From a virus (taxonomy: Duplodnaviria > Heunggongvirae > Uroviricota > Caudoviricetes > Peduoviridae): a stretch of 31,809 nucleotides of DNA. Shown piece by piece: positions 15,975-20,581 of this stretch (within the stretch, counting starts at the first letter, position 1; every line of letters starts with the position of its first letter). Made by a program: the position numbers and the translations under genes. The stretch lies in IMG/VR virus record IMGVR_UViG_2974787780_000001, one strand, 5' to 3'. The notes under the pieces are model-generated. The model had not been told where the DNA came from, did no database searches, and saw only the letters and a program-made list of their open reading frames with translations.

Positions 15975-18710
15975 ATGAGCACGAAATTTAAAACCGTTAT
16001 CACTACTGCCGGAGCCGCGAAGCTGGCAGCCGCCACTGTTCCCGGCGGGAAAAAAGTAAACCTGTCTGCAATGGCTGTGGGTGACGGTAATGGCCAATTG
16101 CCGGTGCCGGATGCCGGTCAGACGAAACTGGTGCATGAAGTCTGGCGTCATGCCCTGAATAAAGTCAGTGTGGATAACAAGAATAAAAACTATATCGTGG
16201 CTGAACTGGTTGTTCCGCCAGAAGTGGGCGGCTTCTGGATGCGTGAGCTTGGTCTGTATGACGATGCCGGAACACTGATTGCGGTATCCAACATGGCAGA
16301 AAGCTATAAGCCAGAACTGGCTGAAGGCTCCGGACGTGCGCAGACCTGCCGCATGGTTATTATTCTCAGCAACGTGGCGTCCGTTGAGCTGAGTATTGAT
16401 GCCAGCACAGTGATGGCGACGCAGGATTACGTCGATGACAAAATCGCAGAGCATGAGCAGTCCCGCCGCCATCCTGACGCCACGCTGACAGAAAAAGGTT
16501 TTACTCAGTTAAGCAGTGCAACAAACAGCACCAGTGAAAAGCAGGCTGCAACGCCAAAGGCAGTAAAAGCAGCCTATGACAATGCTGAGAAACGTCTGCA
16601 GAAAGACCAGAACGGTGGCGATATTCCAGATAAGGACGCTTTTCTGGACAATGTTGGCGTTACCAGCCTGACGTTTATGAAAAACAATGGCGAAATGCCG
16701 CTTGATGCTGATCTGAATACATTTGGTCCCGTTAAGGCTTATCTGGGAATCTGGTCTAAAGCTACCTCAACTAACGCAACACTGGAGAAAAATTTCCCGG
16801 AAGATAATGCTGTCGGTGTGCTTGAGGTTTTTGCTGCCGGCAATTTTGCAGGTACGCAACGCTTCACCACGAGAGACGGCAATGTATACATACGCAGACT
16901 CGCCAATAAGTGGAATGGCTCTGATGGTCCGTGGGGCATATGGCGTCACACTCAATCAGCTACCCGCCCTTTGAGTACGACTATAGACCTGAATACGCTT
17001 GGAGCCGCCGAACATCTTGGTTTATGGCGTAACAGTAGCTCGGCTATAGCTTCATATGAACGCAATTATCCAGAGGAAGGCGGCTTTGCTCAGGGGATGC
17101 TTGAGATCCTCGAAGGCGGAAATTATGGAAGAACGCAACGTTATACCACTCGCCGTGGAAATATGTACGTCCGCTGCCTTGCGGCAAGCTGGGATGCATC
17201 AAATCCGCAGTGGGAACCGTGGTTAAGAGTCGGTCATCAGTCAGAGAGTCGTTATTACGAAGGTGATTTAAATGTTCTAACCGACCCCGGTATTTACAGT
17301 GTTACAGGAAAGGCAACAAACGGTCCGATGCTGGACACCGTTGGCGCGACACTACTTGGGATACTGGAAGTAATCAGACGTTTTGATGGTGTGTCTGTCT
17401 GGCAGCGTTACACAACCACAGGGAAATCAGAAACCACACAGGGACGCACTTTTGAGCGCGTCTACGCCGGGAGCAAATGGACCGAATGGCGAGAAGTATA
17501 TAACTCCTTTTCGTTGCCTCTGAATCTGGGCATCGGTGGCGCAGTGGCAAAACTATCCATTCTGGACTGGCAGACCTACGATTTTGTGCCGGGCAGTCTG
17601 ATAACCGTTCGGCTTGATAATATGACCAACATTCCCGACGGTATGGACTGGGGCGTCATTGATGGCAACCTGATAAACATCGCAGTTGGTCCGAGTGATG
17701 ATTCCGGTACGGGGCGCTCAATGCATGTATGGCGCAGCACTGTAAGTAAAGCCAACTACCGCTTTTTTATGGTGCGCATTTCAGGAAATCCGGGAAGCCG
17801 CACGATCACAACAAGACGAGTACCAATCATTGACGAAGCCCAGACATGGGGCGCGAAACAGACATTCAGTGCTGGCCTTTCTGGTGAACTGTCCGGCAAT
17901 GCGGCGACAGCAACAAAGCTGAAAACAGCCCGTAAAATTAATAACGTTTCGTTTGATGGAACATCAGATATTAACCTGACGCCGAAAAATATTGGTGCAT
18001 TTGCTTCAGGAAAAACAGGAGACACCGTTGCGAATGATAAAGCCGTTGGATGGAACTGGAGTAGCGGAGCCTATAACGCAACTATTGGTGGGGCATCAAC
18101 GTTAATTCTTCATTTTAATATCGGTGAAGGAAGTTGTCCCGCCGCCCAGTTTCGCGTTAATTATAAGAACGGTGGTATTTTTTATCGTTCTGCTCGTGAC
18201 GGTTACGGATTCGAGGCTGACTGGTCTGAGTTTTATACCACAACGCGAAAACCTACAGCGGGAGATGTCGGTGCACTGCCGTTATCTGGTGGTCAATTGA
18301 ATGGTGCTCTGGGTATAGGAACATCCAGTGCTCTTGGCGGTAATTCGATTGTTTTGGGTGATAATGACACGGGCTTTAAACAAAATGGTGATGGTAATCT
18401 GGATGTTTATGCTAATAGCGTCCATGTTATGCGCTTTGTCTCCGGAAGCGTTCAAAGTAATAAAACCATAAATATTACGGGGCGTGTTAATCCCTCGGAT
18501 TACGGTAACTTTGATTCCCGCTATGTGAGAGATGTCAGACTTGGCACACGTGTTGTCCAGACCATGCAGAAAGGGGTGATGTATGAGAAAGCAGGGCACG
18601 TAATTACCGGGCTTGGTATTGTCGGTGAAGTCGATGGTGATGACCCCGCAGTATTCAGACCAATACAAAAATACATCAATGGCACATGGTATAACGTCGC
18701 ACAGGTGTAA
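15975..18710 (+). CDS. H: Tail fibre protein gpH (enlarged, with three tandem ~93-aa internal domain repeats)
   Basis: 911-aa ORF; conserved P2-H-like N-terminus (MSTKFKTVITTAGAAKLAAATVPGGKK); central tandem repeats sharing DLNT..G..L/Y....QR(F/Y)TT..G..Y..W; divergent C-terminal receptor-binding portion. P2 gpH is 669 aa as I recall. Confidence 0.9.
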   Translation: MSTKFKTVITTAGAAKLAAATVPGGKKVNLSAMAVGDGNGQLPVPDAGQTKLVHEVWRHALNKVSVDNKNKNYIVAELVVPPEVGGFWMRELGLYDDAGTLIAVSNMAESYKPELAEGSGRAQTCRMVIILSNVASVELSIDASTVMATQDYVDDKIAEHEQSRRHPDATLTEKGFTQLSSATNSTSEKQAATPKAVKAAYDNAEKRLQKDQNGGDIPDKDAFLDNVGVTSLTFMKNNGEMPLDADLNTFGPVKAYLGIWSKATSTNATLEKNFPEDNAVGVLEVFAAGNFAGTQRFTTRDGNVYIRRLANKWNGSDGPWGIWRHTQSATRPLSTTIDLNTLGAAEHLGLWRNSSSAIASYERNYPEEGGFAQGMLEILEGGNYGRTQRYTTRRGNMYVRCLAASWDASNPQWEPWLRVGHQSESRYYEGDLNVLTDPGIYSVTGKATNGPMLDTVGATLLGILEVIRRFDGVSVWQRYTTTGKSETTQGRTFERVYAGSKWTEWREVYNSFSLPLNLGIGGAVAKLSILDWQTYDFVPGSLITVRLDNMTNIPDGMDWGVIDGNLINIAVGPSDDSGTGRSMHVWRSTVSKANYRFFMVRISGNPGSRTITTRRVPIIDEAQTWGAKQTFSAGLSGELSGNAATATKLKTARKINNVSFDGTSDINLTPKNIGAFASGKTGDTVANDKAVGWNWSSGAYNATIGGASTLILHFNIGEGSCPAAQFRVNYKNGGIFYRSARDGYGFEADWSEFYTTTRKPTAGDVGALPLSGGQLNGALGIGTSSALGGNSIVLGDNDTGFKQNGDGNLDVYANSVHVMRFVSGSVQSNKTINITGRVNPSDYGNFDSRYVRDVRLGTRVVQTMQKGVMYEKAGHVITGLGIVGEVDGDDPAVFRPIQKYINGTWYNVAQV

Positions 18711-18713
18711 TTT

Positions 18714-19241
18714 ATGCAGCATTTAAAAAATATTACTGCGGGTAATCCAAAAACTGTTGCCCAATATCAACTGACAAAAAATTTTGATGTTATCTGGTTA
18801 TGGTCCGAAGAGGGAAAAAACTGGTATGAGGAAGTAAGTAATTTTCAGGAAGACACGATAAAGATTGTTTACGACGAGAATAATATAATTGTCGGCATCA
18901 CCAGAGATGCTTCAACGCTCAACCCTGAAGGTTTTAGCGTTGTCGAGGTTCCTGATATTACCGCCAACCGACGTGCTGATGACTCAGGTAAATGGATGTT
19001 TAAGGATGGTGCCGTGATTAAGCGGATTTATACGGCAGACGAACAGCAACAACAGGCAGAATCACAAAAGGCCGCGTTACTTTCCGAAACCGAATCCGTG
19101 ATTTTGCCGCTGGAGCGCGCTGTCAGGCTGAATATGGCAACAGATGAGGAGCGCAGTCGACTGGAAGCATGGGAACGCTACAGCGTTCTGGTCAGTCGTG
19201 TGGATCCTGCAAATCCTGAATGGCCGGAAATGCCGCAATAA
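18714..19241 (+). CDS. G: Tail fibre assembly protein gpG
   Basis: 175-aa ORF immediately after H, P2 gpG length. Confidence 0.85.
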
Positions 19242-19453: not shown

Positions 19454-20581
19454 GTGAAAATGCCCAATAATCATATGTATGCAAGTCTACTGTCTTACAA
19501 AAACTTAAAGATGGCACATCAAGGAAGTAACTTACGGTCTATTACTGAGTTTTCTCTCTATTCAGATAGTCAACCAATTGGGGCGGTTGATGATGATTCA
19601 GTTTATTGTTTTCTGAATATGCTACCCAGGATAACCAAACAATCCACCGTTGCATCTTCAATTACAGTGCGCACAAAGTGGTATAGTGACTTAAATAATA
19701 TGATTCTTTCTAGTTCTCAGAGTCATACAAAGGATTATCATGGTGGATGGTATAATGATGAAATAGCTGCGCTTTCAAGTTTACTGCTTGGTGTCCGTTT
19801 TCATGCTGGGTCAATTACTCGTCACTATGATTACTACACAGGTGATTTCGGAAGGATCCAAGCGGAGAGTTCTTTTCCTCCCGTTTTAGAGTTTAAACAT
19901 AACAAACCTATAGTTCCTAATGCTATCAAAGAAATTGATATAACTAACCTTAAAGAGCTTAACAATTTACATCTCTTAAGTGAAAAGAATTTCAACCATT
20001 TAATTAGAGCAGCCAGAAGCTATCAAAATGCATTATGGATATGCGAGTCATCTCCAAATATGAGTTGGCTATTGATGGTGTCAGCCCTAGAATGTGCGGC
20101 TAATCAATGGGCAAAATCCAATGCGTCTAAAGAAGAAAGATTTAAACATGCCAAGCCTGAATTATATGAAAAATTAGATACCAATGAATTTAGACATTTA
20201 ATCTCTATTATTGCTAATGAGTTTAAAGATTCATTTGGGGCGACAAAGAAGTTTGTGGATTTCTGCCTGTATTTCCTTCCAGATGAACCTCAAGTGAGGC
20301 CAAAAGTAGGAAGAATTGATTGGGGAAAAGAATCGCTATCAACAACTTTTAAAAAAATATATAACTACCGTTCTAAGGCATTGCATGGAGGACAACCATT
20401 TCCTGAGCCGATGTGTTCCTATCCTGAAGTATGGGATGGGTATATTGCTGAACGAGCGAGAGCATGTTCAACCTTAGGTGGAACGTGGTTGAATGAAGAT
20501 GTGCCAATTAATTTAAATACATTCAACTTTATGACCCATTCCATTTTGAATAAGTGGTGGCAATCTTTATTACCAAGTTAA
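19454..20581 (+). CDS. Hypothetical protein, AT-rich cargo gene at the Z/fun variable locus; candidate single-gene defence or lysogenic-conversion function
   Basis: 375-aa uninterrupted ORF (GTG at 19454; in-frame ATGs at 19460, 19475, 19511) in a visibly AT-rich island between G and FI; followed by a perfect 10-bp hairpin and a terminator; no recognisable family motif. Confidence 0.7.
   Translation: MKMPNNHMYASLLSYKNLKMAHQGSNLRSITEFSLYSDSQPIGAVDDDSVYCFLNMLPRITKQSTVASSITVRTKWYSDLNNMILSSSQSHTKDYHGGWYNDEIAALSSLLLGVRFHAGSITRHYDYYTGDFGRIQAESSFPPVLEFKHNKPIVPNAIKEIDITNLKELNNLHLLSEKNFNHLIRAARSYQNALWICESSPNMSWLLMVSALECAANQWAKSNASKEERFKHAKPELYEKLDTNEFRHLISIIANEFKDSFGATKKFVDFCLYFLPDEPQVRPKVGRIDWGKESLSTTFKKIYNYRSKALHGGQPFPEPMCSYPEVWDGYIAERARACSTLGGTWLNEDVPINLNTFNFMTHSILNKWWQSLLPS

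Follow-up and report, generated by a model that had tools for sequence, protein, structure and literature searches.

The closest described relative of the tail fibre considered here is GpH of L-413C (NC_004745, 913 aa), a P2-like phage of plague diagnosis. GpH has been published as a four-part mosaic (Garcia et al. 2008, as reported in PMC7460101); it binds Y. pestis cells (PMC7460101). Mapping has placed its receptor in the LPS core, and in Y. pestis both L-413C and P2 vir1 need the terminal GlcNAc of that core (PMC3182234). Canonical P2 H (NC_001895; NP_046775; 669 aa) has a centre built of other domains (bioRxiv 10.64898/2026.09.14.750843). A more distant point of reference is the R-type pyocin fibre (PA0620 / PALES_06171; 6CL6, 6CL5, 6CU2), which carries two knobs of solved structure, Knob1 and Knob2 (Buth et al. 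2018; PMC6116203), and after them an iron-binding shaft and a lectin-like foot. Three units in the centre of L-413C GpH bear on this comparison; the accessible parts of PMC7460101 and PMC3182234 do not describe them as knob repeats.

The window, a stretch of 31,809 nucleotides from a Peduoviridae phage (IMG/VR record IMGVR_UViG_2974787780_000001), encodes a member of the P2-family gpH proteins of L-413C type: the N-terminus matches PF12571, the gene follows V-W-J-I, and a gpG-type chaperone gene comes next. The window corresponds to the whole genome of Yersinia phage VB-YPM-18, and the H proteins recorded for this phage and for Yersinia phage vB_YpM_476B match the one here at 100% identity. 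The mosaic structure of the protein agrees with the four-part mosaic of L-413C. Its parts, and the following gene, are these:

15975..18710, + strand: H, tail fibre protein of 911 aa, mosaic of L-413C type (ORF list)
15975..16427, + strand: N-terminal baseplate-attachment domain, aa 1-151, P2-like (Pfam PF12571, E = 1.9e-57)
16482..16604, + strand: phage tail fibre repeat, aa 170-210 (Pfam PF03406, E = 6e-21)
16704..16982, + strand: knob repeat R1, aa 244-336 (R1/R2 z = 32.8; unit HMM 135.6 bits)
16983..17261, + strand: knob repeat R2, aa 337-429 (R1/R2 z as for R1; unit HMM 132.1 bits)
17262..17510, + strand: knob repeat R3, aa 430-512, a divergent copy
17511..17894, + strand: domain aa 513-640, also in T6 gp37 (BLASTP against T6 gp37)
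17892..17981, + strand: conserved junction motif SGNAATATKLKTARKINNVSFDGTSDINLT, aa 640-669
17985..18278, + strand: Mu S'-like distal domain, aa 671-768 (PDB 8ju3 residues 320-417, E = 4.9e-49)
18282..18707, + strand: P2-type fibre tip, aa 770-911 (aligns to P2 H aa 472-669)
18714..19241, + strand: G, tail fibre assembly chaperone (91% identical to P2 G; Pfam PF02413, E = 1.2e-34)

The linker after the tail fibre repeat, to about aa 233, is shared with Mu protein S, of which chains 8ju3 and 5yvq match H from aa 167/168 to 233. The domain at aa 513-640 travels together with the knob block; in the monomer AF2 model its pLDDT is below 40. A fourth, degenerate knob, seen by eye in aa 513-645 (‘DWQTYDFVPG’, ‘VWRST’), was tried and rejected: the hhalign probability was below 1% with all three knob profiles. 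In homologues the junction motif lies either directly behind R3 (P0019) or directly ahead of the knob block (P0003), and the tips that follow it differ. The Mu S'-like domain, matched to the Mu S/S' fibre structure 8ju3, also scores as Pfam PF12604 gp37_C (E = 7.6e-5); the tip matches that of Mu S (5yvq, E = 2.4e-15), and a second match of the tip is to PDB 6f45, a distal subunit of a long tail fibre. Pfam places no model over aa 211-678, and none over the repeats, and the NCBIfam search with H gave no match.

The enlargement of H noted in the preliminary description is borne out: 911 aa against 669 in P2, an excess of 242, taken up by a central block that lacks a counterpart in P2 H. The P2 protein can be aligned solely to aa 1-204 (84% identity) and aa 770-911, and the unit HMM detects no knob in it. 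What the two phages share is the N-terminal 204 aa, the tip, chaperone G and the gene order. The C-terminus had been thought unlike that of P2 H, and here the comparison says otherwise: over its final ~140 aa H can be aligned with the P2 tip, and the G proteins are 91% identical. Identity over the tip is 52% overall because 56 P2 residues are missing in the window; the final ~76 aa are largely identical.

With L-413C GpH the likeness is far greater. The two proteins are 80.5% identical and colinear over the full length, with the P2-like N-terminus, three knobs, downstream domains, tip and position of G all in common. They diverge in the centre: over aa 201-650 identity is ~35-80% per 50-residue block, against 96-100% in the flanks, and synonymous divergence in the central region is saturated. 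A divergent centre between near-identical flanks means that the phage here carries other knob alleles than L-413C. R2 and unit 2 of L-413C H are 67% identical.

That the central region holds three consecutive copies of one domain is upheld, R1 and R2 by alignment and R3 by profile and structural model. The units begin where the preliminary description had put them, R1 with ‘DADLNTF’ at nt 16704, R2 with ‘IDLNTL’ at nt 16983 and R3 with ‘GDLNVL’ at nt 17262; R3 ends with ‘WREVYNSF’ at nt 17510. A self-BLASTP of H returned the identity match only; a separate unit-by-unit alignment with shuffles was needed. R1 and R2, 44% identical in amino acids, then give a local BLOSUM62 score of 191 against a shuffle mean of 26 (sd 5), that is, z = 32.8, a score reached by none of 2000 shuffles. 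The pairs with R3 are not significant by the same pairwise test (z = 1.5 and 2.5).

One might then suppose that R3 is not a true third copy at all, but an unrelated beta domain sharing motif residues by chance, so that the repeat has two copies only. Besides the pairwise z values, it speaks for this that the profile-profile alignment of R1/R2 units with R3 units, although it has a probability of 83% and E = 9e-6, spans just 42 columns. Yet an HMM built from eight R1/R2-type units of five phages scores R3 at 12.9 bits, above the maximum of 10.2 among 2000 shuffles. Aligned together, the three units are invariant in 16 columns (DLN, G-LE, QR-TT, R, W--W), with motif order and spacing kept in R3, and a profile that includes R3 picks up three stretches in many homologues. 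Chance resemblance is thus highly improbable, and R3 is taken below as the third copy.

At the nucleotide level the earlier claim of visible similarity stands in part. The two quoted strings are present, at 16710-16726 and 16986-17002, 276 nt apart, where no chance match is expected; beyond them the repeat is barely visible. A DNA repeat search found only a short 22-nt match, the one already pointed out, and Tandem Repeats Finder reported nothing in the knob region. In global alignment 56% of nucleotides are identical between R1 and R2, and 47-48% between R3 and either of them.

As modelled, R1, R2 and R3 are pyocin-knob-type beta domains: compact, about 80-90 residues each, with a five- or six-stranded antiparallel beta sheet. 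R3 modelled alone (pLDDT 89) has six strands and folds as known knob domains do. The fold of R1 and R2 is deduced from the three-domain model, their homology to R3 and the names used in databases. In the AF2 model of aa 226-690 there are three separate beta domains (pLDDT ~70-85), with comparable strand patterns in R1 and R2; the best Foldseek matches of this model in the PDB are 6cl6_A (E = 6e-7) and 6cl5_A (E = 1e-6), both at probability 1.00, which are the fibres of R2 and R1 pyocins respectively. Structural likeness extends to the knobs of PA0620 and to the knob-like domains in Phi11 gp45, phage K gp144, T4 gp34 and AS12 gp42. By sequence the link is fainter. A profile of the three units, searched against 177,635 PDB sequences, had as its top match 6cl5_A residues 149-210 at a borderline E of 0.018, roughly the Knob2 region if counted on from residue 323, where the construct begins; the Pa193 fibre was the only other match. 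E. coli proteins 99% identical to H are named ‘pyocin knob domain-containing protein’ by NCBI, a label rather than a test. The differences from the pyocin fibre are also clear: three knobs rather than two, only ~16-19% identity to Knob1 and Knob2, and, after the knobs, an unrelated domain, the Mu-S'-like domain and a P2-type tip in place of the iron-binding shaft and lectin-like foot.

The same three-knob block, with unit order kept, occurs at 53-60% identity in gp37 of T6-type phages, which are Straboviridae. In BLASTP, aa 105-562 (of 994) of gp37 of the T6/RB32/RB14 type align to H aa 226-688 with 53% identity. The surroundings are different: gp37 has another N-terminal attachment region, a gp37-type distal end and a separate downstream host-specificity gene, so annotated in the T6 record. 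In T6-type phages gp38 is the adhesin.

The preliminary description read the repeat as a domain duplication that suggested an altered host range. A recent, lineage-specific tandem duplication could in principle have enlarged H in this way, and the 242 extra residues, together with a P2 H devoid of knob units, speak for it. It would predict a tandem repeat in the DNA, where Tandem Repeats Finder is silent and the units are just 47-56% identical. The decisive observation is positional. Within H the units are 30-44% identical to each other, while each is nearer its counterpart at the same position in T6 gp37 (R1 69%, R2 67%, R3 42%) than its neighbours. Nor is the triple confined to one lineage: at a coverage of at least 80%, 221 phage records contain the block, and so do 263 of the 5426 complete E. 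coli genomes. This positional orthology refutes the recent duplication, which we regard as improbable in the extreme. Given the 56% nucleotide identity of R1 and R2, and identity to T6 by position above that between neighbours, the sequences show that the triplication is ancient, not recent.

The distribution is broad. The triple block is present in H of L-413C, in many Peduovirus H genes, in E. coli prophages and in T-even gp37. In a set of 1.84 billion proteins the knob unit itself accounts for 399 representative clusters; among the best 149 of these representatives 55 have one copy, 45 two, 40 three, seven four, one five and one six, so that three copies are common in the family. Searching proteins with H found 36 homologues, mostly partial, all the labelled ones from E. 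coli, and missed T-even gp37; tblastn against phage genomes recovered the T-even relatives. Homologues combine the knob block with at least three different tips. The module is old, common and already catalogued, and it is not universal in P2-family H, a possibility that the preliminary description had raised against its novelty: the canonical P2 protein lacks it.

Peduovirus H genes that are otherwise near-identical vary most in the knob region. Where the flanks are 96-100% identical, this region is pieced together from old alleles: OU784746 (P2SIDE7), for example, shows no difference from the window across R1 and R2 and then departs from it in R3 with dS of ~1.0, and P24B2 has the reverse pattern. 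Recombination breakpoints are not strictly at domain borders. Positive selection on the knobs was considered and rejected: dN/dS is 0.08-0.19 in the comparisons with estimable dS, and synonymous sites are saturated. Such ratios indicate that the knobs are under purifying selection, and imply that old alleles recombining with one another, rather than fast adaptive change, have made them diverse.

The perspective we consider very probable is that the three knobs and aa 513-640 form an old, portable, horizontally exchanged cassette, in which the knobs are mainly structural and specificity resides in the tip. Each knob is a five- or six-stranded antiparallel beta sheet of ~85-93 residues; in the homotrimer each would form one globular bead on the three-fold axis, giving three consecutive beads in mid-fibre. 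The trimeric arrangement is expected by analogy with pyocin structures, the models here being monomeric. The cassette, a piece of the shaft, lies between the P2-type baseplate-attachment domain and the distal Mu-S'-like domain and P2-type tip, the distal part being folded with chaperone G; P2-like phages would have acquired it horizontally, in exchanges with other phages of enterobacteria. As we infer, the knobs would chiefly make the fibre longer and stiffer and promote its trimerisation, and they may also bind LPS sugars laterally, with low affinity. The C-terminal tip probably is the main receptor-binding end and carries the main receptor specificity, for the LPS core if the L-413C relative is a guide.

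A second perspective supposes that the knob array itself binds the receptor and sets host range, with saccharide-binding loops on each bead and allele swaps that retarget the fibre. The concentration of polymorphism in the knobs also fits direct host recognition, and for this reason ‘mainly structural’ is not established. The patchwork of old alleles in OU784746 and P24B2 points the same way; in R-pyocin fibres diversity is greatest in Knob2 (Buth et al. 2018; PMC6116203), and the pyocin knob figures among the mobile fibre domains of the RBPseg atlas (PMC12143355). Against this, the low dN/dS suggests reassortment of old alleles rather than rapid adaptation, the block occurs with several different tips, and in T6-type gp37 it sits near the N-terminal end, far from the distal tip, in phages that have gp38 as adhesin. 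L-413C, with knobs, and P2 vir1, without them, use the same receptor (PMC3182234); their H proteins have the N-terminus and tip alone in common, which argues that the shared tip is the main determinant. Host-range control by the knobs is thus possible but, as we see it, unlikely, and the structural cassette is kept as the preferred reading.

An extension that we find doubtful makes the knob array a second, lateral recognition surface, with single-domain alleles shuffled between P2-like prophages and T-even phages. As an example of such shuffling, R1 is 69% identical to T6 R1 but only 49% to L-413C R1. If such a surface exists, combinations of knob alleles and tip would tune adsorption to LPS core or O-antigen types.

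As a discovery the repeat carries little weight: the protein is identical to deposited sequences, the architecture is that of the published L-413C mosaic H, and hundreds of phages and prophages carry the unit, a fibre domain already catalogued. What changes is that the H gene can now be annotated domain by domain. As near-identical P2-type fibres differ most in the knob region, the knob block and the tip should be treated as separate exchangeable modules; this modularity matters for engineering L-413C-type fibres or pyocin-fibre fusions for detection of Y. pestis or E. coli. Several database records label the H gene merely ‘hypothetical protein’.

The 31,809 bp are a complete P2-like phage genome (genus Peduovirus). 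Upstream of its tail fibre gene, H, are homologues of the P2 baseplate genes V, W, J and I; gene G comes next after H. Across the H gene region, Yersinia phages VB-YPM-18 (ON146440) and vB_YpM_476B are 100% identical to it; vB_YpM_50 and one E. coli phage are 97-98% identical.

Features of gene H and its neighbours (aa, residues of H; nt, window positions)
nt 15975-18710, + strand: gene H, tail fibre, 911 aa
aa 1-204: attachment domain of P2 type (PF12571) with fibre repeat (PF03406); 84% identity to P2 H
aa 167/168-233: linker common to Mu protein S
aa 244-512: three knobs
aa 244-336, nt 16704-16982: first knob unit, R1
aa 337-429, nt 16983-17261: second knob unit, R2
aa 430-512, nt 17262-17510: third knob unit, R3
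aa 513-640, nt 17511-17894: domain adjoining the knobs
aa 640-669, nt 17892-17981: junction motif SGNAATATKLKTARKINNVSFDGTSDINLT
aa 671-768: domain with a close match in the Mu S/S' fibre 8ju3 (E = 5e-49)
aa 770-911: tip, aligning to P2 H aa 472-669
nt 18714-19241: gene G, fibre chaperone, 91% identical to P2 G
nt 19454-20581, + strand: 375-aa ORF between G and the sheath gene FI, at the site of P2's Z/fun cargo locus

The three tandem units of the preliminary description are real and lie where it placed them; its two quoted DNA strings fall at 16710 and 16986, 276 nt apart. R1 and R2 are, by alignment, unmistakably homologous (44% identity; local score 191 against 26 ± 5 in shuffles; z = 32.8). 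Pairwise alignment of R3 falls below significance (z = 1.5-2.5), so this unit was put through separate tests: an HMM built from eight R1/R2-type units of five phages gives it 12.9 bits, with all of 2000 shuffles lower (maximum 10.2); profile-profile comparison gives E = 9e-6; and DLN, G-LE, QR-TT, R and W--W stay in register across the three. The repeat is a feature of the protein: nucleotide identity between units is just 47-56%, and TRF found no DNA tandem repeat.

The unit is a known domain. An AlphaFold2 model of aa 226-690 has three separate beta domains (pLDDT about 70-85) in an otherwise low-confidence chain; R3 modelled alone has six strands (pLDDT 89). In the description of Buth et al. 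2018 (PMC6116203), a knob is an antiparallel sheet of five or six strands, and knobs assemble into trimeric beads. Foldseek ranks the R2 and R1 pyocin fibres first among PDB matches to the model of aa 226-690 (6cl6, E = 6e-7; 6cl5, E = 1e-6), followed by staphylococcal phage receptor-binding proteins; phi812 excepted, the structural matches are pyocin fibres and proteins in the ‘Knob’/‘Knob-like’ list of that paper. Searched against all PDB sequences, the R1-R3 profile finds only 6cl5_A (E = 0.018) and the Pa193 fibre (E = 0.042), both borderline. The former match spans residues 149-210 of the chain, which is about where Knob2 lies when the offset is reckoned from the construct start (the knobs of the pyocin fibre PA0620 are residues 357-439 and 445-528; PMC6116203). 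Neither Pfam nor NCBIfam has a model for the stretch; E. coli proteins of 99% identity carry the NCBI name ‘pyocin knob domain-containing protein’.

The triple is both old and widespread. H aa 226-688 is 53% identical to aa 105-562 of gp37, the distal long tail fibre subunit of T6. R1, R2 and R3 match the same-position T6 unit at 69, 67 and 42% and their neighbours in the same protein at 30-44%; the units had therefore been triplicated before the block spread from one phage family to another. The three-knob block occurs in 221 phage records, mostly T-even (tblastn, coverage at least 80%), and in 263 of 5426 complete E. coli genomes (megablast). A profile searched exhaustively against 1.84 billion representative proteins found 399 clusters with the unit; in a recount of the best 149, one copy occurs in 55, two in 45, three in 40, four in seven, and five and six in one each, so a tandem of three is common. 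One 1300-aa representative (P0037) has six units as two full blocks, aa 217-487 and 721-991; here duplication seems to have copied all three units together. Canonical P2 H has no knob units, and the repeat is thus not universal in the P2 family.

H is the same four-part mosaic as GpH of L-413C, the plague-diagnostic Yersinia phage, which was described by Garcia et al. 2008 (summarised in PMC7460101); the two are colinear (L-413C H, 913 aa; 80.5% identity). The P2-foreign part is the middle, aa 205-769. A C-terminus unlike that of P2 had been proposed; this is wrong for the tip, which aligns to P2 H and is served by a P2-like G. The adjoining domain (aa 513-640) is always found with the knobs, both in H of Peduovirus and in gp37 of T6; no family was detected for it, and its monomer model is of very low confidence. 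The possibility of a fourth knob at aa 513-645 was dropped after testing. The junction motif marks the border between knob cassette and distal H; in homologues, it directly follows R3 (P0019) or directly precedes the knobs (P0003), and three types of tip come after it, with GNAATATKL bordering the block on either side. It has the look of a linker at which fibre modules recombine. Among homologues, the tips attached to the block are of at least three kinds: one P2-type, one Mu-S-type, and one in which a histidine-rich region comes after a collar domain.

Six further H genes of this type from Peduovirus were compared. In five, identity to the window is mostly 96-100% across the flanks (aa 1-200 and 651-911); C-terminal parts differ in P24A7b and in one tip segment of the OU784746 phage. 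In the knob region, old alleles form a patchwork: the OU784746 phage is identical across R1 and R2, with an R3 dS of about 1.0; P24B2 diverges in R1 and R2 and is near-identical from mid-R3 on; L-413C differs all through aa 201-650. Where dS was estimable, dN/dS is 0.08-0.19; knob alleles are thus recombined and purified, not fast-evolving. R1 here (16704-16982) is 69% identical to R1 of T6 gp37 and 49% to that of L-413C. Sequence comparison suggests that single alleles have been exchanged repeatedly between T-even and P2-like phages.

The models being of monomers only, the quaternary arrangement is drawn from the pyocin fibre (PMC6116203): each knob would form one trimeric bead, and the three together would lengthen and stiffen the shaft and provide folding nuclei for the trimer. 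Main receptor specificity presumably resides at the C-terminal tip, on three grounds: L-413C and P2 vir1, whose H proteins have only N-terminus and tip in common, both depend on terminal GlcNAc in the LPS core of Y. pestis (PMC3182234); in P88, a P2-like phage, altered host range traces to tip residues 716-746 (PMC5285337); and T6-type gp37 carries the knob block near its N-terminal end. A possible but less likely reading gives the knobs an accessory role in lateral sugar binding: in pyocin fibres Knob2 varies most, a knob-like prism of the K1F endosialidase binds sialic acid (both PMC6116203), and the polymorphic part of H is the knob region. The reading of the repeat as a notable duplication that changed host range, with a non-P2 C-terminus, is not supported; the feature is a catalogued domain in a published mosaic fibre type, identical to deposited sequences. 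The tip itself lacks 56 P2 residues (about P2 aa 532-591) at nt 18444-18482 (aa ~824-836), between well-aligned segments, and, lying at the presumed receptor-binding end, the indel could count for more in specificity than the knobs.

Beyond G, the ORF at 19454-20581 has a GC content of 34-39%, against 50-60% in adjoining genes, and no match in Pfam, PADLOC or PHROGs. It occurs in only six phage records, each at 99% identity or more, and is a candidate moron or defence gene.
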